A DNA stretch of 64,000 nucleotides from IMG/VR virus record IMGVR_UViG_3300027628_000003, positions 1 through 64,000 of that record; one strand, written 5' to 3'. This DNA comes from a virus. Positions 7,994 to 37,975 of the stretch are shown here, piece by piece (the first letter of the stretch is position 1; each line of letters begins with the position of its first letter). The position numbers and the translations under genes are program-made. Under the pieces are notes generated by a model. The model had not been told where the DNA came from. It made no database searches and saw only the letters and a list, made by a program, of their open reading frames with translations.

Positions 7994-8708
7994 CTAATTC
8001 CCTCCTAATTTGTCTAGCATACTTATTTATTTCAGTCACAGTCTTATTGACTGTAGACTTACTCACACCAATAACTTCAGCCATTTGTCTCTGTGTAAGC
8101 ATATCCCCTGCATCTCTCTTTACTTCTGACAGGAAAATATCTAACACCTTGGCTTCATTCTTACGTCTGAAACGTCTTTTTAGGTAAGGCAGAATTATAT
8201 CAAATTCCTCTAGGTCTGCTATAGAGTTATATCGTGTGTCTTCAGCAGATAGATATACTTCCTCTAATGTACGTTCCTTACCACTATTATTGTTAGACGC
8301 TTTTTCATCATCCCTTTTACCTGCATCATCCTGTAGGCTGGCTGCTTCAATCTCTCTGTACTTATAGTATCTGTATACCTCTCTTATCTTGTTGTCCATA
8401 CAGAAACTAGCATAGGAGGTAAACTTACCACCCTTGAATGTTTCTATAGCTCTGTACATAGCAAAGCTGACATCACTAAACAGGTCTTCTGGAGTAATTC
8501 TGTTCCTATTACAGAATTTGATTATTCCTCCACTAGGAAACCATTTATCCATACATTTAATCACGATACCAACATTGTTAAGGTAGATTGTCTCCTTTAT
8601 ATCCTTACGTTCCTCTTCTGTCTTGGCACTCTCTAATTGTGCGAATAACTCAGCGTTGTCATACTGATACTTAGGGGTAATCCCTCCAACAGCAAAGTAT
8701 GTAGCCAT
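7962..8708 (-). CDS. sigma-70-family (region 2 / region 4) RNA polymerase sigma-like factor
   Basis: 248 aa. Region-2-like EDLFSDVSFAMYRAIETF...FTSYASFCMDNKIREVYR and a C-terminal HTH LTQRQMAEVIGVSKSTVNKTV. Confidence 0.7.
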   Translation of the reverse strand: MATYFAVGGITPKYQYDNAELFAQLESAKTEEERKDIKETIYLNNVGIVIKCMDKWFPSGGIIKFCNRNRITPEDLFSDVSFAMYRAIETFKGGKFTSYASFCMDNKIREVYRYYKYREIEAASLQDDAGKRDDEKASNNNSGKERTLEEVYLSAEDTRYNSIADLEEFDIILPYLKRRFRRKNEAKVLDIFLSEVKRDAGDMLTQRQMAEVIGVSKSTVNKTVTEINKYARQIRRELDESELQRQTN

Positions 8709-8771
8709 TTCTATACACTTCCTTTTCTAAGGTTATTAGAGAGTGCCAATTGGGGAACTCCCTTTCACCCA

Positions 8772-8804
8772 TAAAAAAAGGAGGGGTTTGAAAATCAACC
8801 CCTC
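8772..8804 (-). terminator. intrinsic terminator
   Basis: GAGGGGTT-N8-AACCCCTC followed by CTTTTTTTAT. Confidence 0.7.
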
Positions 8805-9082
8805 GGAAGTACCGACCCTGCATATTTGGCTATATAGCCTTTAGCAGGCTCGAATCTATCAATATTCGCCTGTATATCTTCTGCATTAGCAAACTCCGCT
8901 ACACCTTCTACCTTTCTAAAACCCCACTTAGTAAAGTAAGAGGATACGTGTTGTCTAATAGCCTCACCTTTAGTAAAGCCATCTGATGCCTTTCGAATGT
9001 AGTATTTACCATTCTTGTGATATAGTATCTTATCATCTTTGTGGTCTTTAGTGAGTTTAATACCTTCTACTACCATTTTCAT
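8795..9082 (-). CDS. hypothetical protein
   Basis: 95 aa, lying 10 nt downstream of the 932-aa gene. A terminator overlaps its stop. Confidence 0.6.
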   Translation of the reverse strand: MKMVVEGIKLTKDHKDDKILYHKNGKYYIRKASDGFTKGEAIRQHVSSYFTKWGFRKVEGVAEFANAEDIQANIDRFEPAKGYIAKYAGSVLPRG

Positions 9083-9092
9083 TTAGTCCACC

Positions 9093-11891
9093 TCATTCAT
9101 ATCTTAATCCTATACCTTGTGACTCTGCAAACATTTTCATTAGCTCATGGTGGTCTTGCCATGCTGGGTCACTCTGCCAGTGTTCAGGTACTAGAACATG
9201 GTCTACGTCCTTAGCCAAATCCACTCCCCCAAGTACCTGTGCTTCAAAGTACTCTTTATCGTCATTGAATGTTGTACCCTCAATAACGGAGTTCATAGCA
9301 CGTCTACGCTTACCATCAGCATTCTTAGGCTCTTTCCAACGCCCAAACCAACGGTGTATTACTAGGTGATGTGGGTCTGTAGCAGAGTGTACTAGTTTAC
9401 CTTCTTTACCATAAGGTATTGAGTTAGAGTCGTGTGGCGTACCAGAAGCACGTTTCTTAACATCTTCCTTCATTACTAGGGCTGCACCACCATGTTGTCC
9501 TAGGCTCAAGCCCTGGTTAAAGATATCTAGCACACCATATACTGGGCGCTCATGGTCTTCTGCACCATCAAAGTCATCACCATAGATATCACGTTCAATG
9601 ACCTCTCTATGCTCTCTGTCATACCCTCTGTCTAATTGGAAATCGTTCTTTAGCTTACCTGAAGACATCATTTCCTCTAGCATAGATGTACCACTGTCTA
9701 GCATTTCTGTAGGATCAAAGTGTATCATTAACTTAGCATTACGGGCACCTTCAACAAAGGCATCATATACTTCATCTACCATTGCTGTATTGGTAGGGTC
9801 AATACCGTGGTCAAGAGCTAACGACTTAGTAGCCCACTTCTTAGCACGATGTTCAAATTTCTTACTGTTAAGTTTGGCTCTATCAATACCTACTCTCTCA
9901 TGGAGAGTCAGAGTAACGTTGTCACCATAATCAAACTCTTCAGCTTGAATTCTTCCCTCTGTATTGAAATCGTCGTTAGTCATCTTAAACTTATTACCTT
10001 TGGCAATGTGCTTCTGAATAGCAGTCGCTACCCTCATCCATCTGATAGCTGGGTGTTCCACTACATTACCCTTCTTATCTAATAGGTCTACTTCAATACC
10101 TTGCTTCAGTGCTTGGTCTTCTAAAGCCTTCTTACCATACTTCTTACCAAGAGCTTTAACCTGTTCACGAACTGCATCTGTTACAATAGTATTGGCTTCC
10201 TCCATAAGATGTTTACGTCTTGTACGTACTCCATTCAACATCTTACCTTTAGATAATTCTTTCTTGATAGCCATAGCACAGTTTTTCCAATCAATGTCAG
10301 GGTCTTTATGGTTCTCTTTCCATAGTAGGTCATGGTCTCTACACCAGTCCTTAATCTTTTCCCTGTCAAAGTCAAACTTGTTACAGAACATAAGGAAGAA
10401 CTTGTGGTCATCATCTTTCTTAATCTGTTTCATCTTTTCACTAGAGTCCTTATCGCTATGTGGCACTTCAAACTTGTTACCAGCAGCTATGTGTTCAGAT
10501 ATAGCATTGAAAACCCTAGTCCATAGAATCTTCTCATCTGTTAGTAATGTTCCATCTGCCTTCTTATCGTTCCACTTAATGCCAGCCTTTTCTGCACAAT
10601 CCATGATGTAGGATTTAGTATACATCTTATTAACATAACGCTTGAAGTGTTCCATATCATCTACATATTCTACAGGAACATCCACAACCATATGCTGACC
10701 ACGTTGAGTACCATCTGCTGATACACCCTTGCCAGAGGCAGATACTTCCTTCTTATTACCTTCTTCATCGGTAACTTCAGTCATTACGTCCTCTTTTAGT
10801 GCATCCTCATATTCTTTCTTCAGTTTAGGATTACCTAGTACAATTGCAGGAGCATGAGTCAGTCCTAATTCTCTAGCTAGGTCTACAAGGTGGTGCCCCT
10901 CAAGTATCTCCCCTTTATGGTTGACCTTAACAGGCTGTAACTTCTCACCTCTGTGGTATTTCTCCTTGGCTTCATTGTAGGCTTCCTTGTCAGTAGAGTA
11001 ATTGTGTTCCTTATTCTTGAAGTCCTTTACCTCATGCTGGACTACTGGGAAACGGTTATGCTGACGTCTCTCTATTTCCTTTACCGACTTGTCATCATGC
11101 TTGTATGTTGTATGATTCTCTTGGTCAGGTACTTTTTGATGTACTTCAGCCTTCTCATCATTGGGGTCAATCCACTGCATACGATAGAAGACTTTTCCAT
11201 CCTTACCCTTAACCATTACACGTCTCTTAACTAGCTTTCCTCTGTTAAGAGTGGCTTTATTGATGTCAAGTACTAGAGCTACTTTGTTGTATTCTGGTCT
11301 GCCCTCAATCACCAAGTCTACAGACTTCCATACAGCACGATACTTCCCTTTTGCGTCTCTTAACTTGTCTGGGTCATCTCCCACTACCTTACAAGGAACG
11401 TGTGTATATCCTAGCTCTTTGGAAGCTTCCCATCTATGGTGCCCATCGTGGACATCATAGTTATATCCGATTTCAACGGGTTGAAGTGGCTTACCCATTC
11501 GCATCGAAACTTTGTTTTGAGCGATTTTTCTCCTATTAAGTGCTAGGCGAGTTTGGTAGACTTGCTTCAAACGGTTGACTGGAATGTAAATTACACCGTG
11601 GTCAGAATGCACCTTGTACGCATGACGTCTAGCACCCCTAGGAAGATGAACACGTCCTGCCTTTGCTACCTCTTCTTCGTGGATTATTTTCTCTAACTCA
11701 AAGTACTCTTCTATGTACTCCTCATCAGATTTAATAATTAGTTCTGGCTCTGTGCTCTTCCATACCTCTGGGCGTAGGTCATTCTTGAAGTTCTCTAAAC
11801 CTAGCTCATGTACTAACTTATCCTTTTTCTTATCTTTTTTGGAATCTTTAGGCTTAGCATCTATTCTAATGTAGCATTTTCTTCTACTCAC
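9093..11891 (-). CDS. large polyvalent-type protein with two ParB/Srx-fold (nuclease-like) domains, three internal repeats and an unassigned C-terminal domain
   Basis: 932 aa with a GTG start after aagaaggagg. ParB-type boxes are IPVNRL...QPVEIGYNYDVHDGHHRWEASKELGYTHVPCKVV (aa ~100-170) and QPVKVNHKGEILEGHHLVDLARELGLTHAPAIVL (aa ~318-352). There are three repeats of type GI.W...I.W.RV..AI..HIA.GNKF (aa ~430-650). Confidence 0.75.
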   Translation of the reverse strand: MSRRKCYIRIDAKPKDSKKDKKKDKLVHELGLENFKNDLRPEVWKSTEPELIIKSDEEYIEEYFELEKIIHEEEVAKAGRVHLPRGARRHAYKVHSDHGVIYIPVNRLKQVYQTRLALNRRKIAQNKVSMRMGKPLQPVEIGYNYDVHDGHHRWEASKELGYTHVPCKVVGDDPDKLRDAKGKYRAVWKSVDLVIEGRPEYNKVALVLDINKATLNRGKLVKRRVMVKGKDGKVFYRMQWIDPNDEKAEVHQKVPDQENHTTYKHDDKSVKEIERRQHNRFPVVQHEVKDFKNKEHNYSTDKEAYNEAKEKYHRGEKLQPVKVNHKGEILEGHHLVDLARELGLTHAPAIVLGNPKLKKEYEDALKEDVMTEVTDEEGNKKEVSASGKGVSADGTQRGQHMVVDVPVEYVDDMEHFKRYVNKMYTKSYIMDCAEKAGIKWNDKKADGTLLTDEKILWTRVFNAISEHIAAGNKFEVPHSDKDSSEKMKQIKKDDDHKFFLMFCNKFDFDREKIKDWCRDHDLLWKENHKDPDIDWKNCAMAIKKELSKGKMLNGVRTRRKHLMEEANTIVTDAVREQVKALGKKYGKKALEDQALKQGIEVDLLDKKGNVVEHPAIRWMRVATAIQKHIAKGNKFKMTNDDFNTEGRIQAEEFDYGDNVTLTLHERVGIDRAKLNSKKFEHRAKKWATKSLALDHGIDPTNTAMVDEVYDAFVEGARNAKLMIHFDPTEMLDSGTSMLEEMMSSGKLKNDFQLDRGYDREHREVIERDIYGDDFDGAEDHERPVYGVLDIFNQGLSLGQHGGAALVMKEDVKKRASGTPHDSNSIPYGKEGKLVHSATDPHHLVIHRWFGRWKEPKNADGKRRRAMNSVIEGTTFNDDKEYFEAQVLGGVDLAKDVDHVLVPEHWQSDPAWQDHHELMKMFAESQGIGLRYE

Positions 11892-11971
11892 CTGAAAGAC
11901 CTCCTTCTTTTATTATTCATGAGGAACTTGTCTCATTACTACGTCTAACTATAAAATATTGGAGGATAAGT

Positions 11972-12004
11972 GAAAATAAAAAAGGAGGGGATAATCCCCT
12001 CCTT
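11972..12004 (-). terminator. intrinsic terminator
   Basis: AAGGAGGGG-N5-CCCCTCCTT followed by TTTTATTTTC. Confidence 0.75.
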
Positions 12005-12009
12005 TAATA

Positions 12010-12087
12010 CTACTTATTCTTCTTTTCCTTAGCCTCAGCTATAGCCTTAGTGATCTCATATACACCATTCTCAGTATGTGCGTTCAT
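12010..12087 (-). CDS. small ORF (25 aa), possible
   Basis: GGAGGTGAAATAA-ATG directly abuts the stop of 12088..12408. Reads MNAHTENGVYEITKAIAEAKEKKNK and is followed by a strong terminator. Below the 60-aa track cutoff. Confidence 0.35.
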   Translation of the reverse strand: MNAHTENGVYEITKAIAEAKEKKNK

Positions 12088-12408
12088 TTATTTCACCTCC
12101 TTCCATTGGTAAGAGATAACTTGCTCCTGCACTACCTCAGTACACTTGACACGCCCAGCAGAGTCAGTAGTGTCCATGTAGTCTACTGATTCCCATCCCT
12201 TGAAGTCATTGCCCTCTCTATAAGCAGTATACAAGTAGTACCTGCCTGTTTCATCATGCTTAAAGACAATATCCTTACTCTGCATCTTGTGTTCAACCTG
12301 CCACCCTAAATCCTCTATACATGTTAGTTCAGTTGTACTGTCTCCATCCCCAATAATGCAAAGTAACTCTGGGTGTACCCATGCACACTTGTCACCTAAT
12401 ACTATCAT
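12088..12408 (-). CDS. hypothetical protein
   Basis: 106 aa, overlaps the upstream lipoprotein gene by 1 nt. Confidence 0.6.
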   Translation of the reverse strand: MIVLGDKCAWVHPELLCIIGDGDSTTELTCIEDLGWQVEHKMQSKDIVFKHDETGRYYLYTAYREGNDFKGWESVDYMDTTDSAGRVKCTEVVQEQVISYQWKEVK

Positions 12409-12665
12409 TAATATCCTCCTCTTGGGCAGAAAGGCTTTCCATCTGCACCTAAAATTTGAGTAACGCCTTCATCAGTGACAGCGAATCTACATCCTGTAGG
12501 TTTATACTCTATATCATAGATGTCTAATCCATTATCCCTGTCACGATAGTTGCTGATAACCTTAAAATTTTCATAATCATTTTTATTAGACCCAGTATTC
12601 TCACAGGCTACTAATGACACTAGGGACAATCCGATTACCCCAAGGATAGCTAATTTCTTCTTCAT
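12408..12665 (-). CDS. small lipoprotein
   Basis: 85 aa. Signal peptide MKKKLAILGVIGLSLVSLVA-C with lipobox LVAC. ATGA overlap with the upstream gene. Confidence 0.7.
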   Translation of the reverse strand: MKKKLAILGVIGLSLVSLVACENTGSNKNDYENFKVISNYRDRDNGLDIYDIEYKPTGCRFAVTDEGVTQILGADGKPFCPRGGY

Positions 12666-12925
12666 TTAGCTTCCTCCCCATCCAGTTCATACATAGTAAT
12701 ACCGCTACCCTCATACTTTACTACTGTGTACCGTTTCTTGGTTTTCTTATGCATTACCTCAAAGATAGTAGTCATAGAGTCAATCTTGTCAGAACTCATT
12801 ACTGCATACCCAGAAGGCAGTACAGTGTTATCATCTACTAAGTTAGACCTTCCATGAGTTCCACTAGGAGCACAACCCACCAATAATAATGCTGATATAC
12901 CCACCGCTGCTAGTACCTTCTTCAT
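12662..12925 (-). CDS. small lipoprotein (paralogue of 12922..13191)
   Basis: 87 aa. MKKVLAAVGISALLLVG-C with lipobox LVGC. Shares PSGY..(M/L)S..K(I/L)D...E(V/I).HK.T..R(Y/F)T(V/I)V with the next gene. Confidence 0.7.
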   Translation of the reverse strand: MKKVLAAVGISALLLVGCAPSGTHGRSNLVDDNTVLPSGYAVMSSDKIDSMTTIFEVMHKKTKKRYTVVKYEGSGITMYELDGEEAK

Positions 12926-13191
12926 TTAGACCCCTCCATCTTTGTAACAGATGTAGCTACCCCACCATAAACTCCTGACTCAACTATGGTAAAGCGTTCA
13001 CCAGTATCTTTGTGCTTTATTTCTACTACAGATACATTGTCGTCCAGTTTAGTAACACTTAGAATATCATACCCAGAAGGATAAGATTTCTTGTTGTCTT
13101 TAGTAACTATCTGCTCTGCACCAGCATCCATACTAGTACAGCCTGCAAGTAATAGTGCTGATAAGCCAATTGCTGCTATTACTTTCCTCAT
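12922..13191 (-). CDS. small lipoprotein (paralogue of 12662..12925)
   Basis: Start moved to the ATG at 13191 (ATGA overlap with 13188..13532). MRKVIAAIGLSALLLAG-C with lipobox LAGC. Confidence 0.65.
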   Translation of the reverse strand: MRKVIAAIGLSALLLAGCTSMDAGAEQIVTKDNKKSYPSGYDILSVTKLDDNVSVVEIKHKDTGERFTIVESGVYGGVATSVTKMEGSK

Positions 13192-13532
13192 GCGTCTAAC
13201 CATCCCTTCGGGCTTTTAATCTCCAACAATCTTTCAAGTATGGCTTCATGTGTCATATGGCTGTGTAAGAAGGGTCTGAACGCATCTATCAAGTTATTGA
13301 ATGAGCCAGCGTTTAAATTACCAAAGTCATTGTATAGATTAAGCATTAATATTAGAATGTCAGCTACTTCAGATATTTTATATCCAAGCTCTCTGTTTGG
13401 TTTAGTGAATCCTGCTCTGCGTATTTCATCATACTCATGTTGTAGTTTTATAACAGGGAAGTCCCCAAAGTTAGTACTAACCTCAACAGTATGGTTATTA
13501 CCTCTTATAAATCTAACATCAATTTTTGCCAT
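13188..13532 (-). CDS. hypothetical protein (weak MazG-like helical signature)
   Basis: 114 aa. ELGYKISEVADILILMLNLY loosely resembles the MazG/dCTPase E..E..D helix. Not a firm call. Confidence 0.55.
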   Translation of the reverse strand: MAKIDVRFIRGNNHTVEVSTNFGDFPVIKLQHEYDEIRRAGFTKPNRELGYKISEVADILILMLNLYNDFGNLNAGSFNNLIDAFRPFLHSHMTHEAILERLLEIKSPKGWLDA

Positions 13533-13797
13533 TTGCGATAGCCCCCTCTAAAGTTTCATTTAGCTCCTCTAGGGTGAATGATACCTCATGTTTCTCTCTG
13601 TCATCATCGTGGTATACAGTGATAACGTCACCCTCTTGATCATACCCACCATGTGGGAAAGTACCGCTTTCTGGGTTTCTGATTAGAGCCTTTAATTGCA
13701 TTGCCATAAGCTCCACATTCTTGTTAGTTTCAGTATCTGTGATGATAACCCCACTTAAAAATCCTGCACCAAATTTACTCAATTTCAGTCTGCTCAC
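13519..13797 (-). CDS. hypothetical protein
   Basis: 92 aa, GTG start, 14-nt overlap with the next gene. Confidence 0.55.
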   Translation of the reverse strand: MSRLKLSKFGAGFLSGVIITDTETNKNVELMAMQLKALIRNPESGTFPHGGYDQEGDVITVYHDDDREKHEVSFTLEELNETLEGAIANGKN

Positions 13798-13825
13798 TAC
13801 TGATTCCTCCCTCTCAACGTCTTCA

Positions 13826-13858
13826 CAAAAATAAAAGAGGAAGAGTCGAAACTCTTCC
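13826..13858 (-). terminator. intrinsic terminator
   Basis: GGAAGAGT-TTCG-ACTCTTCC followed by TCTTTTATTTTTG. Confidence 0.75.
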
Positions 13859-13867
13859 CCTTGGTGT

Positions 13868-14257
13868 CTATTTCTCTAAATCAGGTAACTCACAACCGCA
13901 CTTCTTCATAGAACGCAGCCACTTATCCTCGGTTGTATGCCCATCCCAGTTAGGCTCAATCTGTGGGAGGTTTCCTAGGTCAAAGTCGTCTGGTACATGG
14001 AAGGTCATCCGTCCATCAAATAAGCTGATGGCTCTAGACCATCCCTCCCCGATAGTATGGTTATACCAACCACATACGGGAGCATCTTTGGTCTCAGCTT
14101 TACTCCCTACCATCTTTAGATAATTGGCAAACTCCCTGTAAGCCTCATTTGCATAGGTTGCAAAATGTAGGGCTAACATGTTTCTTTCCCAATAAGCACC
14201 ATCCTGTGCCTCCTTAGGACTCATTCCCTCTTTCCATACATACGGTGTCATTGCCAT
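13868..14257 (-). CDS. hypothetical protein with a literal WDGH motif
   Basis: 129 aa. Contains ...YWERNMLA... and ...EPNWDGHTTEDKW.... A terminator follows the stop. Confidence 0.6.
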   Translation of the reverse strand: MAMTPYVWKEGMSPKEAQDGAYWERNMLALHFATYANEAYREFANYLKMVGSKAETKDAPVCGWYNHTIGEGWSRAISLFDGRMTFHVPDDFDLGNLPQIEPNWDGHTTEDKWLRSMKKCGCELPDLEK

Positions 14258-14457
14258 TGTCCATTCCCCTTTCTCATGCTACAAGTAGCACCATTGAATC
14301 TAGTTACATAATGTTCCTGCATTCCGTATCCTTCTAGTTGCTTGTCTACATTAAAGTCTATACCCTTGACAGCCATACCAGGGTATTCTTCCTTTAGATG
14401 TTTTATCAGAATCTCCTGAATCTCAGCAGGTGTAAGTGTTACAGTAAGTCCAGCCAT
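14248..14457 (-). CDS. hypothetical protein
   Basis: 69 aa, 10-nt overlap downstream and 2-nt gap upstream. Confidence 0.55.
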   Translation of the reverse strand: MAGLTVTLTPAEIQEILIKHLKEEYPGMAVKGIDFNVDKQLEGYGMQEHYVTRFNGATCSMRKGNGQWQ

Positions 14458-14459
14458 TA

Positions 14460-14690
14460 TTATTCCTCCCTCTTTATTACAATTCTTAGGGGCTGTGTGA
14501 GTAAGTACATTAAGATTTGTTTATCCAGTTCCTGTAGTTGCTTTGACGCTTTCTCCTTACTTCCAATAGGTTGTGTTTCATCCCACACAACATCCAGTAG
14601 GTGCTTTTTAAGAGATAGGTAAGGTTCTGGTATGTCTTGTTGGAGTATCTCGATGTCAGTCCACTTTAGTGTACCAAATGTCTCCATCAT
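14460..14690 (-). CDS. hypothetical protein
   Basis: 76 aa, ATGA overlap with the upstream gene. Confidence 0.55.
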   Translation of the reverse strand: MMETFGTLKWTDIEILQQDIPEPYLSLKKHLLDVVWDETQPIGSKEKASKQLQELDKQILMYLLTQPLRIVIKREE

Positions 14691-15331
14691 TTACCCTCCT
14701 TGTGCTTGAAGTGTACTCTACGGTTAATTAACTTAGTCTCGCACCAATTCGATTCAAACTCCCTAAGAGCCTTTGCTAGGGAGTTCTTAGGGTTAGAGTA
14801 GTGCGTTTCGCAATGGTCTAGTATTTCGTTCATGGAAACCCAGCCACCCTTCAACTTTAGATACTTCTTCACCCTATCTATAGTCAGCTTGTAGTTGGTT
14901 ACGTACCCCCCACCACTTGAGCCACCCTCTAGCCACGTTTGGTGTTCAGGCTTTAGAACATCATCCCATTTAGTATTCTTATAAGGTCGATTAAACTTAG
15001 CCTTCAGTATTATGTCGGCTTTCCTCCAGCCACGGTCACTTACCTCTATAATGCCAATTCCCATACCAGACAGCAGGTTCCACACAAATGTAGGTATTGC
15101 TTTCTTACGTCTAGGTATGGCAATATAGATATAATGACCAAATCGCTTCCACTTATACGCTTGCTCAATAAGTTCCATTGACAGTGAAGTCTTCATCTCC
15201 ACTATGGCTACGGCAGGCTTGTTGTAACCAATTACGTCAGCCCTACCACTACCACCCCAAGAATTAACTTCTACCTCGGCATAGACCTCGTAGCCAATGC
15301 CTTCAAGTAGCTCTTTAACATACTTATACAT
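14687..15331 (-). CDS. PD-(D/E)XK-fold nuclease-like protein
   Basis: Start moved to the ATG at 15331 (MYKYVKELLEG...), 1 nt after the stop of the small membrane ORF. GRADVIGYNKPAVAIVEMKTS fits D-X13-E-X-K. Confidence 0.6.
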   Translation of the reverse strand: MYKYVKELLEGIGYEVYAEVEVNSWGGSGRADVIGYNKPAVAIVEMKTSLSMELIEQAYKWKRFGHYIYIAIPRRKKAIPTFVWNLLSGMGIGIIEVSDRGWRKADIILKAKFNRPYKNTKWDDVLKPEHQTWLEGGSSGGGYVTNYKLTIDRVKKYLKLKGGWVSMNEILDHCETHYSNPKNSLAKALREFESNWCETKLINRRVHFKHKEGK

Positions 15332-15332
15332 T

Positions 15333-15509
15333 TCATTTTCTTTCACGTTTACCCCACCCATACAGTATGGTGATTGCAAAAAGACACAGGCAGCAAGCTA
15401 CAATCAGTATGCCGACTGCTCTTGCTAAACCTGTATCAAAGTAACTCATTATTGTTCCTGTGATTAAAACCACTAGTCCGATTACTAGTACAATTAATTT
15501 GTCTATCAT
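15333..15509 (-). CDS. small membrane protein (58 aa)
   Basis: RBS aggagagacagaaaa before the ATG. MIDKLIVLVIGLVVLITGTIMSYFDTGLARAVGILIVACCLCLFAITILYGW gives two hydrophobic helices. Below the track cutoff. Confidence 0.45.
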   Translation of the reverse strand: MIDKLIVLVIGLVVLITGTIMSYFDTGLARAVGILIVACCLCLFAITILYGWGKRERK

Positions 15510-15528
15510 TTTTCTGTCTCTCCTGTTA

Positions 15529-15897
15529 TTAGTCGTTCTTGTTAGGGTTTCTTGGTGCTGTAGGTCTTACTGTAGTAGTCGCACAAGACAATCTAGTTGT
15601 CTCTAGTAAGCCAAATGTGTTTGTTTCAGCATCAATAGTAAGTGCATAACGGAAGATAGCACCATTGTTCTGGATATGAACAATACTTGTTATAGTTGCA
15701 GGACTTTCAACTGGTACAGATAAGCTAGCAATATAGTTAATTGCTTCTGCTTTAGTTCCTAGAGTTACTGTGTTACGATTTCCCTTTGATTCGTCTAAAT
15801 CTTTGTACTCAGTAGTAATTACCCATACACCATCGGAGTAATTCTTGTAGTTCATATAACCCCATGTGCCTTCAGCTTTCTTATCAAATGGATACAT
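15529..15897 (-). CDS. hypothetical protein
   Basis: 122 aa, first gene after the 16.0-kb terminator/AT-rich gap. Confidence 0.6.
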   Translation of the reverse strand: MYPFDKKAEGTWGYMNYKNYSDGVWVITTEYKDLDESKGNRNTVTLGTKAEAINYIASLSVPVESPATITSIVHIQNNGAIFRYALTIDAETNTFGLLETTRLSCATTTVRPTAPRNPNKND

Positions 15898-16029
15898 GTA
15901 AATCCCTCCCTTGAGTTTTCAAAATGAAAAAACCAAACTATAAAAACTCTTCTCCTTTGTATACTAAAGTGCACTCTTTAAATTAAAAATAATAAAAAAT
16001 TAACCTTTTAAAACTTTTCTCTTTAATAC

Positions 16030-16067
16030 TAAAAATAAAAAAGACTACTCTATGAGTAGTCTTTTTT
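16030..16067. terminator. bidirectional terminator
   Basis: AGACTACTC-TAT-GAGTAGTCT flanked by an A-run and a T-run. Confidence 0.75.
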
Positions 16068-16074
16068 AAATGGA

Positions 16075-16272
16075 CTATGCCTTACGTGCGTAAGTCTTGT
16101 CCAGTTCAGCTATCAGCTTAGTCATGTCAATGTCAGTAGGAACGATTTTAGCAGGTGTGCCACCTAAACCTAAAGCGGTTTTCACACTCGGTACATCAAT
16201 CTCGTTACCCATGATTTTGACTTGCTTTCCTAAACCAGGAATATACTTAGAACCAGGATATGGTTTTGGCAT
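16075..16272 (-). CDS. hypothetical protein (65 aa)
   Basis: RBS aaaaaggaggtattccc before the ATG. A bidirectional terminator follows the stop. Confidence 0.5.
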   Translation of the reverse strand: MPKPYPGSKYIPGLGKQVKIMGNEIDVPSVKTALGLGGTPAKIVPTDIDMTKLIAELDKTYARKA

Positions 16273-16336
16273 GGGAATACCTCCTTTTTCGTAATCAAGT
16301 ATAAAATTCGTATCCTCAATGCACAGGTCATATCAT

Positions 16337-16359
16337 AGAAAAAGACCCACTAGGGGTCT
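16337..16359 (-). terminator. intrinsic terminator
   Basis: AGACCC-N5-GGGTCT followed by TTTTTC. Confidence 0.55.
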
Positions 16360-16669
16360 ATTTCTTAACTAACTGTAGGAAGTACTCTTCAGCAGTGAAG
16401 ACGTCAAAAGTACTACCCAAAGCCTGTTCAACATCATGTACAGCTATAGGAGGAATGTTGTTCTTAATCAGGTGACCACTAGTACCATTAAAACTAGTTA
16501 ACAGGGTTCCATCTATTTGCATGCTTCCTCCAGTACTATTGTTGTAGTTCACATGCTCAGTAACTAAATACGTAGCACCAAACCCACCGTTCTCAACTAT
16601 AATACTGCCAGCCTCAATCCTTACATCAGATGGTGCAACTTCAGGTTTAACTACTTGCATATCATCCAC
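16358..16669 (-). CDS. hypothetical protein (paralogue of 16748..17056)
   Basis: 103 aa. Shares ...G(S/T)I(I/V)V...AYL(V/L)...LG(S/T)T...(T/Y)(A/T)EEY(F/M)L.L(V/I).KK with its neighbour. Has its own terminator. Confidence 0.6.
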   Translation of the reverse strand: MDDMQVVKPEVAPSDVRIEAGSIIVENGGFGATYLVTEHVNYNNSTGGSMQIDGTLLTSFNGTSGHLIKNNIPPIAVHDVEQALGSTFDVFTAEEYFLQLVKK

Positions 16670-19978: not shown

Positions 19979-20346
19979 TATATATTCATCTCCAAATAAG
20001 TTTTTTGCCAAGGTCTTAGATAAGGCACAATACGGAATCGTGCTTGTCGTAGATGAACCTTATCACCATCACGTTTTACAGATGTCGCAGCACAGTACTC
20101 TGTAAAGCCTTGGTGTAGAGTATAAGTCTGACTACCCTCATGTGTTTGGTGTATAAGGGCAAGATGTAATTTGTCCTTTAGCCTATCATAAATATCAGCA
20201 GGCAAGGTAATATAATGGGTAAAGATATCCCAGCTATCTCCATTGACTCTTTCCAGATAGAAAGGCTTGCCCAGTACTATATCCTTCTTTTGTGCATGTG
20301 GTATATCCACTCCATCAATGGTTAGGGTAGTTACTTCCATCTCCAT
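19978..20346 (-). CDS. hypothetical protein, member 3 of a tandem four-gene set
   Basis: Start moved to the ATG at 20346 (TAATG overlap). Reads MEMEVTTLTIDGVDIPH.... Confidence 0.55.
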   Translation of the reverse strand: MEMEVTTLTIDGVDIPHAQKKDIVLGKPFYLERVNGDSWDIFTHYITLPADIYDRLKDKLHLALIHQTHEGSQTYTLHQGFTEYCAATSVKRDGDKVHLRQARFRIVPYLRPWQKTYLEMNI

Positions 20347-20696
20347 TACTCCACCACCCAACTAGGGTTTACTCGAAGAGTAACGCCACCAATAGTCTCC
20401 ATGTGGTCAAGTGTATGTCGTGAGTAGTAGCTAACAGAGGATAATTTACCTGTGAATGCTCTGTTTGCTATGGACGTACTCCCTTTTCTACCATCAGTTA
20501 TCACAGTCTTACAATGTGTAGCAGCTATCTTTGACCTACTGTTTGGTAGCTGTTTCCAGTCTTCTTCAGGTAATGTCATGGAATTGAGGTGAATGACAGC
20601 CCCTCCATTTGGTGACCTTTCTATACGTAACCCTTCGTGGTCTATCTCCACACCATTAATGTGAAGTGTACTCTTATTAGTAACAGTGATTCCCAT
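20346..20696 (-). CDS. hypothetical protein, member 2 of a tandem four-gene set
   Basis: 116 aa, MGITVTNKSTLHINGVEIDH.... RBS agggaggaattaaa. Confidence 0.6.
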   Translation of the reverse strand: MGITVTNKSTLHINGVEIDHEGLRIERSPNGGAVIHLNSMTLPEEDWKQLPNSRSKIAATHCKTVITDGRKGSTSIANRAFTGKLSSVSYYSRHTLDHMETIGGVTLRVNPSWVVE

Positions 20697-20708
20697 TTTA
20701 ATTCCTCC

Positions 20709-21059
20709 CTATTTTAAATGTAATACAAAGTGGACATGATTTAGAACCAACATATCCAGTTCTACCCACTTCTCTTCGTAGCTATTAATGCCTATATGAC
20801 CCTCAAACCTAGTAGCATAACGGGTAGGCTCAGCTCCAGCCATGATAGGTTGGGCATAACCTTTATCATAATCTAGACATCCTTCAGCCCACACATGATT
20901 GGTTAGAACTCCCATAAGCTCCTTTGGAAATAGTATCCTACGTAATTGGAAGTATAGTGTTCTATTACGTATTTGCATTTCCATATCTCCAGGTATGATG
21001 ATGGGAATGTCCTTACCGTTGATGTAAAGGGTGTGGTCTTGTGGTTGAACTATATGCAT
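20709..21059 (-). CDS. hypothetical protein, member 1 of a tandem four-gene set
   Basis: 116 aa, MHIVQPQDHTLYINGKDIPI.... RBS aaggaggggagagagc. Confidence 0.6.
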   Translation of the reverse strand: MHIVQPQDHTLYINGKDIPIIIPGDMEMQIRNRTLYFQLRRILFPKELMGVLTNHVWAEGCLDYDKGYAQPIMAGAEPTRYATRFEGHIGINSYEEKWVELDMLVLNHVHFVLHLK

Positions 21060-21153
21060 GCTCTCTCCCCTCCTTACAAAAAAGAATGCAAAAGAAAAAA
21101 GTTTTCTTTTATAGGAAAAAGGAGGTGACGTACTTTTTTATAGGGTGAAAATA

Positions 21154-21360
21154 AGGGGGTGGGGGTTGTAGAAAAGGGGTAGGGGGTGTATTTGGGGGGG
21201 TGTCGGGGGAGGTAGGGGGTGATGATGGGTTAGAAAAGTGGGGAGTGGTGCGTTGTGGTAGTGGGTTGGGGCGTGTGTGAGACTCCAAAGGAAACATGAT
21301 TCCTTACGTAGGCGAAAAAAGAAAACTTTAGGGGGTGGGGGTTAGAGATAGGGGGTGGTG
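21154..21360 (+). repeat. G-tract repeat region (TAGGGGGTG x4-5; many G4-G7 runs)
   Basis: aaGGGGGTGGGGGttg (21154), aaGGGGTAGGGGGTGta (21176), ttGGGGGGGtgtcGGGGGaggTAGGGGGTGat (21194-21222), then tTAGGGGGTGGGGGtta (21330) and aTAGGGGGTGgtg (21350). Confidence 0.8.
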
Positions 21361-21361
21361 C

Positions 21362-21526
21362 CTACCCACCCCGTACCTCTGGGTTCACTCGCTTCACTCC
21401 TGTACTTGTGTGTAGCCAGCTGTCATCCCTTATTGTCTTGCCATCCTTAGTCTTGATTAATCCCTCTGTGCCCTCACGCTTATGCACAGGCTTAACACTC
21501 TTGAACTGTCTCAGCTTATCACTCAT
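21362..21526 (-). CDS. small ORF (54 aa) carrying a KDGKT...W motif
   Basis: AAGGAGAAGATATAG-ATG, so the start abuts the stop of 21527..23398. Reads MSDKLRQFKSVKPVHKREGTEGLIKTKDGKTIRDDSWLHTSTGVKRVNPEVRGG. Below the track cutoff. Confidence 0.4.
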   Translation of the reverse strand: MSDKLRQFKSVKPVHKREGTEGLIKTKDGKTIRDDSWLHTSTGVKRVNPEVRGG

Positions 21527-23398
21527 CTATATCTTCTCCTTGTCCATTAGTCTTGAATATTGCTCTAGTTCTTCATCACTGATATCATCTAAGTCATCTA
21601 AGTCCTCTAGGTCTTCATAGTCTAAGTCCTCTTGCCCTGTGTCAGCTAGGTAGCTGTCAACCTTACTGTCACGTAGTTGCTCTTGGTATGCTTCACCATC
21701 AGTGTTGATATGCTTCTCAGCTTCCCATGATGACTTACTAGTAAGCATGAATGCCTTACCCAAGTGAGCATCACCTTTGATATCCTCAAAGTCATGTGCT
21801 GTCAGGTCATACCTGTAGCCATCATCTAGTTCAGCGAACTCCCAAGCATGCTCTAGGTCATCAACACTGTCATACCCACAGGCGTTCATGACTTCCTCTT
21901 CATCCCAACCGTTCTTATCTATGAACTCCCTAAGCTCTGACTTAGCAGTCTTTAGCTCATAACTGTCAGCAAAGTCAAAGCCCTTGCTCTTGTCAGCCCA
22001 TGCATAACAGCCTACTGTGATGTTAGCATTTATGCTTATCTTAACCTTGTTGCCCTTTGCCATGTGCTTCCACATCTGTTCACTTCTGTTATACACATTG
22101 CTTGCAATGCCTATATTCTGATAGTCCTCATCTATCTCTAATGCATCGTTATGCACTACTAGGGAGCCATCGTGGTCACGACCAATTGTACGGTTGATAA
22201 TACCAGCATGGAATCCATCCTTTGATTTAAGCTTGATAGCCATAGACCAGTTGATATCATATTTACCCATGCCTAAGTCAAACACATCAGGATGGATGAG
22301 AGCTATATGGGCAGTGTACTTGCCTTCAGGTGAGCTAAACACATGCTCTATAGCACTAGGTGACAGTTCACCAAATATATCCTTAGCTGAAGCCTTAGCA
22401 GCATCCAATGGGCTGTTAAGCATATGCTTCATTGCTCTCTCATGTTGTTCATGTAGCTCATCATACTTGTCTTGGTCTCCTAGCAGGTCAGCTACTGTAT
22501 CCTCATCCATGTTCTCCAACTCATCAAAGTCTATACTTTGAGTGATTGCTTCCTTTTTGTTCTTCCCTTGCATCTCTTTCTCAGTGGCTTCCCTACGCCA
22601 CTTAGCCATGTTATTAATCTTGTCATCGTGTGACTCTAGGCTAGGGTCATAGTCCTCTGGTGTGCCATATGCAGGCTTCTCATCAGCCTTAGGCTTATCC
22701 TCAACCACTAGCTTTGGCTCTTCCTTAGGTTGTTCTGGCTCTTGCTTATCAGGGTCTGGCTCCATAGCCTTGACAGCATTATACTGTGGACTATCCTCAC
22801 CATATGTCATCTTGGTTAGCTCCTTGGCTCTCTCCATATCAGCACCATTCATGCCCATAGTAGCCCAACCAATGTCCATTGTAGAGCCTTCATCAAGAGT
22901 CTGTAGGAATGAGTGAGGTAGTTGCTCACTTAACTCACCCATACGCTCAGCTTCTAACTTTGTATGACCAGCATCATTAATCATAGCAGTATGCTGGAAG
23001 AAGTCACCATCATGAATAGCTAAGTACTTGTTAGCACCATGCCTGATGTGGTTATCTGTGAACTGTCCACCCATAGCTGACTCCTTGGTCTCAGGTAGAT
23101 ACACAGGACTCTTAGTGTGTAGCTTGTTCTTCAGTGCTCTCTCACTATGAATCCCTTGTGCAGCTAGCGCTTGCTTATACTGTGGATGTTCGTTGATACC
23201 ATGTCTCATTGCCTCTTTCAAGTGGTCTTCATTATGGATTGCCCTCATACCATGACCAGTACTGGCATCCCATGGATTCACCCATTGCATACGGAAGAAC
23301 GTCTTACCGTCCTTCCCTTTAACCATTACACGCTTACGTGTCAGCTTACCAGTGTTGAGTGTGTGCATTCCCTTGCTTATGTTTATATACAGTTCCAT
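21527..23398 (-). CDS. large acidic protein sharing an N-terminal module with the ParB polyvalent protein (probable virion/ejected protein)
   Basis: Start moved to the ATG at 23398 (MELYINISKG...), 2 nt after the terminase stop. LNTGKLTRKRVMVKGKDGKTFFRMQWVNPWD matches LNRGKLVKRRVMVKGKDGKVFYRMQWIDPND of 9093..11891. It has D/E-rich linkers. YQNIGIASNVY weakly resembles a GNAT acetyl-CoA loop. Confidence 0.7.
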   Translation of the reverse strand: MELYINISKGMHTLNTGKLTRKRVMVKGKDGKTFFRMQWVNPWDASTGHGMRAIHNEDHLKEAMRHGINEHPQYKQALAAQGIHSERALKNKLHTKSPVYLPETKESAMGGQFTDNHIRHGANKYLAIHDGDFFQHTAMINDAGHTKLEAERMGELSEQLPHSFLQTLDEGSTMDIGWATMGMNGADMERAKELTKMTYGEDSPQYNAVKAMEPDPDKQEPEQPKEEPKLVVEDKPKADEKPAYGTPEDYDPSLESHDDKINNMAKWRREATEKEMQGKNKKEAITQSIDFDELENMDEDTVADLLGDQDKYDELHEQHERAMKHMLNSPLDAAKASAKDIFGELSPSAIEHVFSSPEGKYTAHIALIHPDVFDLGMGKYDINWSMAIKLKSKDGFHAGIINRTIGRDHDGSLVVHNDALEIDEDYQNIGIASNVYNRSEQMWKHMAKGNKVKISINANITVGCYAWADKSKGFDFADSYELKTAKSELREFIDKNGWDEEEVMNACGYDSVDDLEHAWEFAELDDGYRYDLTAHDFEDIKGDAHLGKAFMLTSKSSWEAEKHINTDGEAYQEQLRDSKVDSYLADTGQEDLDYEDLEDLDDLDDISDEELEQYSRLMDKEKI

Positions 23399-23402
23399 AT
23401 CC

Positions 23403-25079
23403 TCACATCCTATCGTATCCAAATGTTCCACCACCAGAAGGCATGAAGTCATAATCAAGGTTAGTGCTAGGCTCATGCAACGCAAGTATCCTGTCAAGAG
23501 CTATATACGCATATGTTAATGAACAGGCTAAGTGGTCATCCCCTACACGTGTTACCCTTTCATACACTTCTCCATCTTCCTCTTCCATTATGGTTCTCAC
23601 GTTCTTTAAGTGCTTGGTTAACATATCCAGCTTCTCACACTGACCAAACATCCCTATTGCTCTTGCTTTCAGGTTGTATAGAGTACGCTTCATCTTAGTA
23701 GTCTTGTCAACCCTTACACGTCTACCTTTGTCATTCCATGCATCCACAAGAGGTATTGATGTTCTAGGTGTATCCCAGTCACATGCATATACTCTACCTG
23801 GGAACTGTTGCATCAAGTAACTGTTTCGGTCAGCCCCAAAACCATTATCGGCAACAATCACATCAGGGTCAAATGGCTTCAATAGAGCTGTGAAGATGTT
23901 AACGCTCTCTAATGGCTTGTTAGGGTTGTCAGCTACCCAATGCAGGTCTAGCAGGTCTACACGGTTGTCATGAGTAAGACCTAACACTACCATCCAGTTG
24001 AAGTAACCCCAGTCTACTCCAGCTACAATCTTCTGATACTTTGAATAATCCCTGTAACCTATTGGCTCTTCATACTTCTTACACGCAAGTATGTCTTGGT
24101 CAGTGATAAGCAAGCCTTCAGATGCATAAGGTATACCAATAACGTAGTTATAGAACAATTGCTTAATCTTATACTGGAATTGGTTACGCATTATCTCATC
24201 AGCATTAATCCATACAGCGTCTAGCTGACTGATGTGATAGCCACGTATCTCATGCACATCTGGGTGCTTTGCTACGTACTCACCTTGGTGCCAACGGTTA
24301 AGCTCTTGCTTACACTTGCTACAGATGAACATGAACGTTCCGTTCTGTATTTGCTCCCTAACTATATCAATACCATCATCCTTGACCTGTAGGATGTTAT
24401 CCTCAACAGTAAGGAATTGCCAATGGTTACACTTCTCACACTTGTGATGGTAGAAGCGTTGGTCACTCTTCTGGAATAGTAAATCCACTCCACGACCAGG
24501 TATAGTAGGAGTACTCCAACGTCTCATTAGACCATATGCAGATGACTTCATAGACTCACGGAAGGCTAGCTCCACTCCATCTTTCATACGGTCATACTCA
24601 TCCAGTCCTAGCATATCAATATCGGTACCCTCACCCAGTGCACTACCCCACGCTGAACGTAGGAACAACACTGATTGATTAGTAAGCTTTTTAAGACGAA
24701 CGTTGTTCATCTTAGGGTCAAGACGACTGTTCAAGTATGCTGACTCAGTAAAGATAGGAGTTATACGAGTGTTACTAAAATCCTCCATTTGCTCTTTACG
24801 TGGGAACGTATACATGGCTTTAGTATTTGGATGAGTGTCCAAGAACCATGTAAACTCTGTGATAGCCATCTCTGACAGACCTAACTGACGTGACTTACGT
24901 ACTACCTTATCAGGGTGCTGGTCATTAAGGATGTCTATTTGCCAAGGTCTATGTTTGATTGCATTCTTCGTACTATGGAATGTAAGGGGGTTTCCCTTGA
25001 TGAATCTATGTCTCAACGCATATAGAGATGGTGTCTTGTTTATTAGCATCTCTTGCAGTTGTGCTTTGGATATTTGCAT
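23403..25079 (-). CDS. terminase large subunit
   Basis: 558 aa with RBS aaggagggagaaag. ATPase motifs are KSRQLGLSEM (Walker-A-like) and DMLGLDEYDRM (Walker B). The C-terminal nuclease-type acidic motifs are VAGVDWG and VGDDHLACSLTYA. Confidence 0.75.
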   Translation of the reverse strand: MQISKAQLQEMLINKTPSLYALRHRFIKGNPLTFHSTKNAIKHRPWQIDILNDQHPDKVVRKSRQLGLSEMAITEFTWFLDTHPNTKAMYTFPRKEQMEDFSNTRITPIFTESAYLNSRLDPKMNNVRLKKLTNQSVLFLRSAWGSALGEGTDIDMLGLDEYDRMKDGVELAFRESMKSSAYGLMRRWSTPTIPGRGVDLLFQKSDQRFYHHKCEKCNHWQFLTVEDNILQVKDDGIDIVREQIQNGTFMFICSKCKQELNRWHQGEYVAKHPDVHEIRGYHISQLDAVWINADEIMRNQFQYKIKQLFYNYVIGIPYASEGLLITDQDILACKKYEEPIGYRDYSKYQKIVAGVDWGYFNWMVVLGLTHDNRVDLLDLHWVADNPNKPLESVNIFTALLKPFDPDVIVADNGFGADRNSYLMQQFPGRVYACDWDTPRTSIPLVDAWNDKGRRVRVDKTTKMKRTLYNLKARAIGMFGQCEKLDMLTKHLKNVRTIMEEEDGEVYERVTRVGDDHLACSLTYAYIALDRILALHEPSTNLDYDFMPSGGGTFGYDRM

Positions 25080-25109
25080 CTTTCTCCCTCCTTAATAGAT
25101 AAAGGGGGT

Positions 25110-25499
25110 CTACACCCCCTTCTTAGCCACCGACATATCAGCATCATCGTTAGCCTTGTTCAACTCCTTAGTCATATCCGCAAGCAACTTGCTAATGTTA
25201 GGGTCATCAAGGTCGATAAGCTCAGCCACTTTATTAATCTTAACTTCATCCAGTTCACTAAGCTGTTCAGTACGCTCAGTCACATCACCCATAAGAAGTA
25301 AGTCTAGCTTAATAATCTCCGCTAACTCTTTAGCATTCCTAATGCCCTCTACCTTGCCCTGTGCTAGGTCATCAAAGTAACTGTCTATTAAGTTCCTGAC
25401 AGTTGCTCTATGCTCTTGCTTGGCTTCATCTACACTCTCAGGTAGAGTAGCTTTTCGGAATGAAGCAGATAAACTTGATACCAGTGTTGGACGTTTCAT
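25110..25499 (-). CDS. hypothetical protein immediately upstream of the large terminase (small-terminase position)
   Basis: Start moved to the ATG at 25499 (aaaggagggatacc-ATG). 129 aa, helical and charged. The function is suggested by position only. Confidence 0.5.
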   Translation of the reverse strand: MKRPTLVSSLSASFRKATLPESVDEAKQEHRATVRNLIDSYFDDLAQGKVEGIRNAKELAEIIKLDLLLMGDVTERTEQLSELDEVKINKVAELIDLDDPNISKLLADMTKELNKANDDADMSVAKKGV

Positions 25500-25575
25500 G
25501 GTATCCCTCCTTTCTTTGAAAAAATACAAAAAAGACGTGTATCAATGATACACGCCTGTTCTACCAGCTATTCTA

Positions 25576-26127
25576 TTATTCTTCCTCTGGCATATCGTCT
25601 TCCTCATCATCAGCAGTATGACCTAACCAGAACATGCCTAGTTCCATATCATCCTCATACTCAACGTCTATGTCACCAAAGCCTGGTACGGAGTAAATGC
25701 CTGTTGGCTCAAGCCCTACCATCGTTAGGGTCTCTGGGTTGAACTTAATCATATCAGGGTCTACGCCTTCCTTTACCTGATAATCACGTATAGCGCTTAG
25801 TATTTGTTCATTCATCTGTTTGATAGCAGCATCTGGGTCAGTCTTACTAAGATGGTTACGAATTATCTTATCATTAGCTTCCTTAGTATACTGATCCATA
25901 GTCATGAACTGTACATTAGGGCTGGACTTCAACAACCCACTAATGAAGCTATCAACCCCAGCATCACTCCCTATGTCTGGTTCGAATGCAGTACATAAGG
26001 ATGGGTCATCATAGTCCACTGGTACACCATTACTCTTCATATCATGGAATATATTTATGAACTTGCACACCTTTTCATGTCTACATTCCTTACAAGTCTC
26101 TATGGGATATCCTTGAAATCCTTTCAT
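25576..26127 (-). CDS. hypothetical acidic protein
   Basis: 183 aa with an N-terminal Cys cluster (CKECRHEKVC) and a C-terminal DDEEDDMPEEE tail. Confidence 0.6.
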   Translation of the reverse strand: MKGFQGYPIETCKECRHEKVCKFINIFHDMKSNGVPVDYDDPSLCTAFEPDIGSDAGVDSFISGLLKSSPNVQFMTMDQYTKEANDKIIRNHLSKTDPDAAIKQMNEQILSAIRDYQVKEGVDPDMIKFNPETLTMVGLEPTGIYSVPGFGDIDVEYEDDMELGMFWLGHTADDEEDDMPEEE

Positions 26128-26138
26128 CCTATCTCCTC

Positions 26139-27269: not shown

Positions 27270-27437
27270 GCTCACAACCTCCCTTTGCACTAAAAGAAGG
27301 GAAGAAGTCCCAAATCTTCTCCTTCCTACGAAACTGGTAGAGGATGACCCCATCGTCCTATAATCTGTCTCTTGCAGGTGAGGGTTTCCTATGGCTCGCT
27401 AGCTTTTTTCTTTACGTACTTCGTACGTAATTTAAAG

Positions 27438-27500
27438 CTTTTAAGTATTTATTTTTTAATTTAAAAAAGAGTATATTTAAAGACTCTTTTAAGTATTTAT
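27438..27500. repeat. AT-rich region with a perfect 15-bp direct repeat
   Basis: CTTTTAAGTATTTAT occurs at 27438-27452 and 27486-27500. Nearby are the inverted repeat TACGTAC-ttc-GTACGTA (about 27414-27430) and a hairpin AAAGAGT...ACTCTTT between the repeats. Confidence 0.7.
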
Positions 27501-28220: not shown

Positions 28221-28265
28221 GCCTAGGGCTAGGCGTATAGCCCCACTCTACCTACCGAAACGTCC

Positions 28266-37658: not shown

Positions 37659-37975
37659 ATCTTGGCTGTGTGTAGGTAGGAATTTGTAAGATAAGAGAAG
37701 TGAGTTGAAGTAGAAAAATTAGGTATAGTGCGCCTATAGGGGGCGGTACAGGTCACCCAAACGGGTGTTTGTGTACTGTATCCCCAGTCATTCATACTAC
37801 TGCTCTTCCCATACCTTAATAGAACTGGGTTCCTATAAATCCTCCCCTATTTCTATGTTCATGTGTCTGTGAGTGAGTATCCTGCTACTCTCAGTAACTC
37901 TTCCTATGCTTTTGTGCATAGTTTCCCACCCACACTATCCTGTCCCAAGTGTCAACTAGGGTACGCTACAGGTAT

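Follow-up and report, generated by a model that had tools for sequence, protein, structure and literature searches.

A G-tract island as the probable right boundary of the terminal repeat in a Siminovitchvirus-like phage

Closest described systems and the G-tract island

Fixed genome ends have been described for several relatives of the phage analyzed here. The ends of Goe2 were mapped by primer walking and Sanger run-off sequencing, in which a signal drop and a run-off adenine peak mark the terminus, and the right end was placed at …TTTCCTT(A/TT)GGAGTC^ (here and below the caret marks the end; PMC5490822). For Goe3 (Bastillevirinae), a repeat of 4,954 bp was reported (PMC5490822). In the Staphylococcus phage 812 (Twortvirinae), packaging starts with the left end and ejection with the right end; the last 85 bp hold four G:C tracts, with B/A-hybrid DNA in the neck/tail channel, and the authors proposed that an AT tract followed by a GC tract may encode ejection pauses (PMC12886913). 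We followed up an earlier note on a 64-kb stretch of viral DNA, positions 1 to 64,000 of IMG/VR record IMGVR_UViG_3300027628_000003 (hereafter the window), which had drawn attention to an island of repeated G tracts at 21100-21361, next to the packaging genes. Our comparison indicates that this island is probably the inner (right) boundary module of a direct terminal repeat of ~16.5 kb, window 21281-37757. Part of this picture is already known: two relatives in GenBank carry the boundary in their annotation, and the terminal G tracts of phage 812 were reported in 2026. The window module is an unusually G-tract-rich version of this known repeat-boundary site.

The region matches the Siminovitchvirus phages of Bacillus cereus, JL (83.7% identity), Shanette, and CP-51 (Herelleviridae, Spounavirinae), and by this similarity the window comes from a Siminovitchvirus-like B. 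cereus phage. CP-51 uses hydroxymethyluracil-containing DNA. The island itself reads as the earlier note described it. The motif AGGGGGTG occurs on the plus strand at 21154, 21181, 21214, 21330, and 21350, with no further plus-strand copy in the window, and the longer repeat GGGGGTGGGGGTT is found at 21155 and 21331. Counting both strands of the window, AGGGGGTG is present in 9 copies versus 1.7 expected, a number that none of 100 shuffles reached. The four minus-strand copies all lie outside the island; the only one checked, at 25113, sits directly upstream of the terminase start and resembles a ribosome-binding site. Plus-strand runs of at least four G form a dense cluster, 12 of the 75 in the window falling within the 262 bp of 21100-21361, where ~0.3 would be expected. 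The earlier figure of "more than 12" runs was therefore a slight overcount, and the G+C content of the window is ~40-41% rather than the ~38% first given. Within the island, A/T runs alternate with tracts of G5 to G7.

Phages 812 and K show the same arrangement in outline, in that their genomes, AT-rich elsewhere, carry three to four G:C tracts within ~85 bp of the right end and a short-repeat array just outside the repeat. The corresponding segment of the window, 21281-21365, would hold G5 runs at 21331, 21337, and 21351, followed by C4 at 21369, a tally that depends on the inferred terminus. The right end of phage K reads ...GGGGGcaGGGG...GGGGGtGGG...CCCCtatggtctacc^ and is followed, just outside the repeat, by a AAGTCAACA array. 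No sequence homology was detected between the phage K terminus (...TCTACC^CAGGTA) and that of the window, and the systems differ in that 9 of the 12 tracts of the window lie beyond the terminus and not in the terminal 85 bp. The repeat length of Goe3 puts its end at ...GACCCCTCCCC...ACACCCCCtctctacc^, and there too a cluster of G:C tracts is found at the right end. The 2026 observation on phage 812 would in this way be extended to Bacillus phages of two other subfamilies.

The direct terminal repeats of phages T7 and T3 are likewise fixed and non-permuted, with arrays of a short motif in the adjoining unique sequence. In T7, CCTAAAG arrays lie on both unique flanks of the 160-bp repeat; the flank arrays are known as SRL and SRR. 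The T7 sequences CCTAAAGTT and CCCCCATAGGGGG resemble CCCCCTAAAGTT and CCGCCCCCTATAGG of the window, short likenesses that may be due to chance, whereas the repeat lengths (160 bp versus ~16.5 kb) and the terminase families differ. In lambda-type cos sites (cosQ-cosN-cosB), accessory sites on the flanks of the cut site position the terminase and provide the termination signal. This analogy is functional only: the window has no cohesive ends and no sequence relationship to cos, and its terminal redundancy must be duplicated.

Boundaries of the predicted terminal repeat

The GenBank records give terminal repeats of 1..16292 for JL and 1..16480 for Shanette, with the note that the repeat "also exists at the end of the genome". 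Both stop at ...AGGAGTCCCGTTTCCTTTTGGAGTC^TCACAC, inside the island, and the homologous junction in the window is 21281^21280, at the end of a terminus box (GTAAGGAATCATGTTTCCTTTGGAGTC, 21281..21307, minus strand) in which the right end is predicted to follow the final C, with 21281 belonging to the repeat and 21280 to the unique region. The records of Goe2 and Goe9, which include both repeat copies, end ...AGGAGTCCCGTTTCCTTAGGAGTC / ...CCCGTTTCCTTAGGAGTC / ...TTTCCTTAGGAGTC, at the same homologous position, and the window sequence ...TTTCCTTTGGAGTC^TCACAC aligns with these record ends. The CampHawk record ends 2 nt short of the Goe2/Goe9 end, and that of Goe16 ends ...CCCGTTTCCTTGGGAC / ...CCTTGGGAC. 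The JL boundary lies 22 nt from that of the SPO1 record and was therefore not simply copied from SPO1. Three independent sources from two genera thus place the right virion end at the same base of the same box. By homology, the DNA of this phage would most likely be cut at 21281.

The likeness to the Okubovirus genomes (SPO1, Goe2, Goe9, and CampHawk) extends well beyond the cut. Siminovitchvirus and Okubovirus share, with order and orientation kept, a C-box A with TAAAGTTT, then AGGAGTCCCGTTTCCTT, a C-box B with TTAWTTTC, and CTAYNNAAAAAAGKAC. In both, the module consists of a hairpin, C-box A with its TAAAGTTT element, AGGAGTCCCGTTTCCTT..GGAGTC, an array, C-box B, and an A6 block; the position of the mapped end agrees to the base, and the left ends are homologous. 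At the repeat end of SPO1 itself (13185), C-box A with TAAAAGTTTC, AGGAGTCCCGTTTCCTT, and C-box B recur in the order and orientation that they have in the island. SPO1 differs in carrying five TTCAAAACTA-type repeats between the boxes where the window has G/C tracts, in a repeat of 13.2-13.9 kb without a terminase gene, and in flanking genes that run in the opposite direction.

The earlier note had offered a pac or terminase recognition site among its candidate functions. The connection to the terminase holds, in the form of an inner terminal-repeat boundary. A headful pac site was rejected, as the ends of the relatives are fixed and non-permuted, with long exact repeats, and judged by homology the site would be a fixed genome terminus. 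The window contains no second copy of the repeat region, so that it cannot by itself prove redundancy. We also discarded the use of IMG/VR contig ends as physical ends, since the edges of the loci are not always contig edges and the starts of the group-B contigs do not coincide.

The annotated repeat ends within Okubovirus are not uniform. Relative to SPO1 at 13185, that of CampHawk lies 20 nt and that of Goe2 22 nt further on (SPO1 is L008; records L008, L012, and L013). In the SPO1 box (13160-13215), AGGAGTCCC occurs twice, and the SPO1 end lies one base away from ^GTCCCG, a hexamer also found at the start of the left end. SPO1 may have two cut sites, or its record may be 22 nt short.

The left boundary is predicted at 37735..37760 on the minus strand (...CCCGTTTG^GGTGACCTGTACCGCCCCCTATAGG), where position 1 of JL corresponds to window 37757. 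The left end would be 37757 by JL numbering or 37749 by homology to the Goe2/SPO1 end ^GTCCCGCCCCCATAGG. The sequence GTACCGCCCCCTATAGG, read from window 37749 downward, matches the left end GTCCCGCCCCCATAGG of Goe2/SPO1 as well as JL positions 9-25, and the boundary sequence matches the mapped left ends ^GTCCCGCCCCCATAGGACAC of Goe2, Goe9, and SPO1. The predicted repeat, 21281-37757, would span ~16,477 bp, a length like that of JL, and the motif ACCRCCCCCTAT lies just inside both predicted ends, at 37738-37749 and 21348-21359. The most probable linear genome would read from 37757 down to 21281 and include a second copy of that stretch. Within the predicted repeat lie the gene for TerL (23403..25079), the 139-aa neighbor upstream of it, and the gene for a 623-aa ParB-like protein, so each virion DNA would carry these packaging genes in two copies.

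On the unique side of the left boundary, ~950 bp (37660-38620) are without a convincing gene and hold short open reading frames (ORFs) of 52-79 aa. CTCCGCT occurs five times at 37975-38045 and is present in JL too, and a CACCC-aaac-GGGTG palindrome lies exactly at base 1 of JL. The left-boundary region gave no relevant Rfam match and no tRNA match.

Anatomy of the module, its proposed working, and alternatives

The island was compared with JL, Shanette, CP-51, and the IMG/VR contigs L042, L045, and L090, and the invariance of blocks was scored in six sequences. The syntenic comparison proposed in the earlier note bore out conservation: the island is a non-coding module kept, with its tracts, in all seven relatives examined, some of its blocks are invariant, and these exceed the flanking genes in conservation. 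On the minus strand, the repeat side begins with the hairpin AGAGGUAC-GGGGUGG...CCACCCC-UAUCUCU (21344..21380, inverted repeat I2), which overlaps the stop codon of a 54-aa gene, contains one CACCCCCTA motif, and is invariant in sequence in the six relatives. Its RNA fold of -23.9 kcal/mol (z = -1.5) is not significant alone, and 21 nt separate it from the T-run, too far for an intrinsic terminator. SPO1, CampHawk, and Adastra have a G-run/C-run hairpin of other sequence at the same place. C-box A (AACCCCCACCCCCTAAAGTTTTC, 21321..21343, minus strand) is invariant in the six Siminovitch-like sequences and lies inside the repeat, ~40-60 bp from the predicted end; its homologue in SPO1/Goe2, GACCCCTCCCCCCTAAAAGTTTC, is equally far from the mapped end. 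In the terminus box that follows, the first half of the window sequence, AAGGAATCATG, replaces the AGGAGTCCCG of the relatives. This variant is common to contig L090 (93.6% identical), and both retain TTTCCTTTGGAGTC^TCACAC.

Beyond the predicted terminus, the first bases of the unique region (TCACACACGCCCCAACCC, 21263..21280, minus strand) are conserved, with TCACAC and GCCCCAACCC invariant in the six relatives. They are followed by a variable C/G-tract array (21168..21262, minus strand), which holds 7 of the 12 island runs of at least four G; together with the two G5 runs of C-box B, this puts nine of the twelve on the unique side. Two copies of CACCCCCTA lie in the array and one in C-box B, starting at 21154, 21181, and 21214 with spacings of 27 and 33 bp. 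Among relatives, the array has changed by substitutions and by indels of up to 19 nt. Despite this drift, each relative retains 10-13 runs of at least four C in a 410-nt span around the terminus box. C-box B (AACCCCCACCCCCTTATTTTC, 21147..21167, minus strand) is a direct repeat (D2) of C-box A at a distance of 176 bp and is conserved in relatives; its SPO1 homologue is GACCCCCTCCCCCCTTAATTTC (13434-13455).

The unique side ends with a 58-nt non-coding block (CCCTATAAAAAAGTACGTCACCTCCTTTTTCCTATAAAAGAAAACTTTTTTCTTTTGC, 21088..21145, minus strand) that is nearly 100% conserved in the six relatives and is followed by the ribosome-binding site of the next gene. At the position of this block, SPO1 has ...CTACGCAAAAAAGGACACC... 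as well. The block probably serves the first unique gene (21059..20709) as promoter or leader and may also belong to the terminus module; the promoter scan called no sigma-70-type promoter in it. In CP-51 (L002, ~5870-6003), an extra small gene lies between the 58-nt block and the first unique gene, and the non-coding module upstream is intact. The island is bracketed by a perfect 13-nt inverted repeat (I1, AAAGTTTTCTTTT), with the left arm at 21098..21110 on the plus strand and the right arm at 21317..21329 on the minus strand, where it overlaps the TAAAGTTTTC tail of C-box A. These arms are the sole copies in the window even when one mismatch is allowed, with 0.1 expected.

These elements suggest how the module could work. 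Replication would yield concatemers with one copy of the repeat between genome units. The terminase would begin at the left boundary (~37757), reel the DNA in, and make the final cut at ...TTTCCTTTGGAGTC^ (21281), with the terminus box serving as the cut site, so that each virion DNA would end inside the island. The hairpin, C-box A, and three G5:C5 tracts would then occupy the last ~85 bp of the repeat (21281-21365). If phage 812 is a guide, this right end would be packaged last, reside in the neck/tail channel, and be ejected first, and its inner G:C tracts may favor compact B/A-hybrid DNA there. The unique side (21088-21280), with the array, C-box B, and the invariant block, would stay on the concatemer, where it might act as a recognition or braking platform that fixes the cut position, either as repeated sites spaced at ~30 bp for a terminase accessory protein or as DNA that stalls the motor. 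Such a platform would be the counterpart of arrays that differ in sequence, those of SPO1 (TTCAAAACTA), phage K (AAGTCAACA), and T7 (CCTAAAG); a protein-binding array, another candidate of the earlier note, is plausible for this part outside the repeat. The invariant block and the outside stretch could also carry expression signals of the first unique gene. C-box A, C-box B, and the terminus box offer conserved boxes that can be mutated to learn how SPO1-type terminases find a fixed end, and a lineage whose outside array became a G-tract array offers a natural test of sequence-specific binding versus DNA structure.

Several points weigh against a right boundary at 21281. Its placement relies on homology and on annotation by others, and the annotated boundaries of relatives scatter over ~80 bp, those of SPO1, CampHawk, and Adastra falling 22 nt, 2 nt, and ~75 nt earlier, respectively. 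In the window, the first half of the terminus box (AGGAGTCCCG) is altered at 5 of 10 positions, and a second candidate cut, CACCCCCTATCTCTAA^CC at ~21343, resembles the K/Goe3 terminus ...TCTACC^C. The idea of a DNA end in the tail, taken from phage 812, cannot explain the nine tracts outside the repeat, and the role that we give to the G tracts is wholly inferred. Finally, the repeat as drawn here includes the terminase gene, and the TerL gene of SPO1 is 10 kb outside the repeat.

A different account, possible and compatible with the boundary, is that the island is an ordinary intergenic control region, comprising the terminator of the terminase operon and a phage-specific promoter/5' leader, with the tracts as incidental spacers or promoter-upstream elements. 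The island does lie between two co-directional gene blocks, a stable hairpin stands at the stop codon of the 54-aa gene with a T-run further on, and the near-invariant 58-nt block is beside the downstream ribosome-binding site. In unrelated metagenomic phages, moreover, similar C-boxes lie directly upstream of a TTGACT...TAGGTT promoter-like pair. However, our scan of 20000-22500 found no intrinsic terminator and no promoter-like site inside the island, and the hairpin lacks a directly following U-run and reaches a z-score of only -1.5. A control region would also leave unexplained the same blocks at the mapped SPO1-like ends, where the flanking genes point the opposite way, and the tract count that is kept while the sequence drifts. 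The tract array as an ejection or packaging brake appears unlikely. Sequence-encoded pauses of an AT tract followed by a GC tract have been proposed for phage 812 (PMC12886913), the island alternates such runs, and its position coincides exactly with the terminal-repeat edge. Yet if ejection starts from the right end, as it does in phage 812, the array would come up only once all but 16.5 kb has left, and that remainder duplicates genes delivered before; a pause at this point would have no obvious use, and the equivalent outside arrays of SPO1 and phage K lack G tracts.

It is improbable that a G-quadruplex or i-motif blocks replication or transcription here or makes the island a recombination hotspot. 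The 25-nt G4Hunter peaks in the island are 2.72 and 2.48 (criterion, >1.5), and the 250-nt mean is 1.24 versus a maximum of 0.56 elsewhere in the window, so that by this measure the island has, on paper, the folding potential of G-quadruplex-forming DNA, as the earlier note had expected. Only one canonical four-tract motif with loops of up to 7 nt is present, at 21176-21209, however, and we saw no sign that such structures are used. Tracts are few in the SPO1 and Goe3 modules and are split between strands in SPO1 and phage K, and the cumulative GC skew of the window does not turn at the island. On this last result, a replication origin at the island is without support. Hardly credible at all is a C-rich small RNA or proline-rich protein encoded on the minus strand. 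Firmicutes are known to have C-rich small RNAs that base-pair with ribosome-binding sites, and ORFs are annotated across the island in JL (gp34), Shanette (gp32), and CP-51 (gp197). C-rich sequence of this kind lacks stop codons; the frames and start codons of these ORFs differ, and the islands of the relatives are set apart by indels that are not multiples of three. On these grounds the protein-coding reading was rejected. The ORF at 21109..21297 is thus a composition artefact, as the earlier note had called it, and a spurious proline-rich "gene" annotated in three GenBank records can be removed. For an RNA, the array region has no stable fold, and a scan of the island against Rfam 15 gave no relevant match, the sole one touching it being a sub-threshold, partial ctRNA match at 21088-21107 (E = 0.5; 20.7 bits versus a gathering score of 50). 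None of these alternatives accounts for the coincidence of the same blocks with mapped ends.

The terminus-box 15-mer in other phages and neighboring genes

The exact 15-mer AGGAGTCCCGTTTCC of the terminus box occurs at 65 loci in IMG/VR. About 20 of these look random, and the rest belong to Spounavirinae and to several unrelated metagenomic lineages; the 15-mer is non-coding in at least six unrelated metagenomic phage lineages of 38 to 57% G+C (example loci from L020-L084: L075:1-300, L024:4400-4900, L035:300-800, L054:1-400, and L034:11100-11400). Boxes of the CCCCCACCCCC or GGGGCGGGGG type flank the 15-mer in 6 of 30 clusters, with more after a merged cluster was split by eye, compared with a background of 2% of 300-nt windows, and extra copies of (T)AGGAGTCCC lie near it in direct or inverted orientation. 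In one broad lineage, the 15-mer immediately precedes a terS-like gene, after which come terL and portal, and in others terL is 2-4.4 kb away. A shared terminase family was rejected as the cause, as the TerL proteins of these lineages form three groups that BLAST cannot relate. In one lineage, inverted copies GGGACTCCTATA look like T7-type promoters. GAGTC is the site of PleI, MlyI, and Nt.BstNBI. An Rfam scan of 16 loci with the 15-mer gave no match, and a literature string search for the 14-mer and its complement found no occurrence in searchable papers.

The 15-mer could be a signal for genome ends or packaging that these phages have in common, a promoter-proximal element, or an element of another kind. 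We consider it rather unlikely that the terminus box and G/C-tract boxes are the form taken here by a DNA signal that occurs widely outside Herelleviridae. Were this so, whether as a common end-forming or packaging signal or as the site of a conserved DNA-binding or nicking factor, genome ends could be predicted from sequence in many uncultured phages.

The genes around the island follow one another on the minus strand in the order 139-aa protein, TerL, 623-aa protein, 54-aa protein, island, and a run of small genes. The 139-aa protein encoded upstream of TerL (25110..25529) has a weak match to small terminases and is the candidate small terminase. TerL, the large terminase, is encoded at 25079..23403, and the 623-aa protein after it (21527..23398) is a member of phrog_27103, a family of unassigned function; it has a weak match to ParB-like nucleases at the N terminus and to a minor head protein at the C terminus. 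It is not a portal protein. SPO1 likewise has a ParB-like gene directly after TerL. The 54-aa gene (21362..21526) adjoins the island, and the first unique gene (21059..20709) lies downstream of it.

Two further features of the window were recorded. A 226-nt direct repeat of 75% identity (28550-28775 and 30125-30350) lies in a plus-strand gene block within the predicted terminal repeat. On the minus strand at 5323-5397, ARAGORN called a tRNA-like gene with an abnormal two-base anticodon, located between tRNA-Trp (4869-4942) and tRNA-Met (5715-5788).

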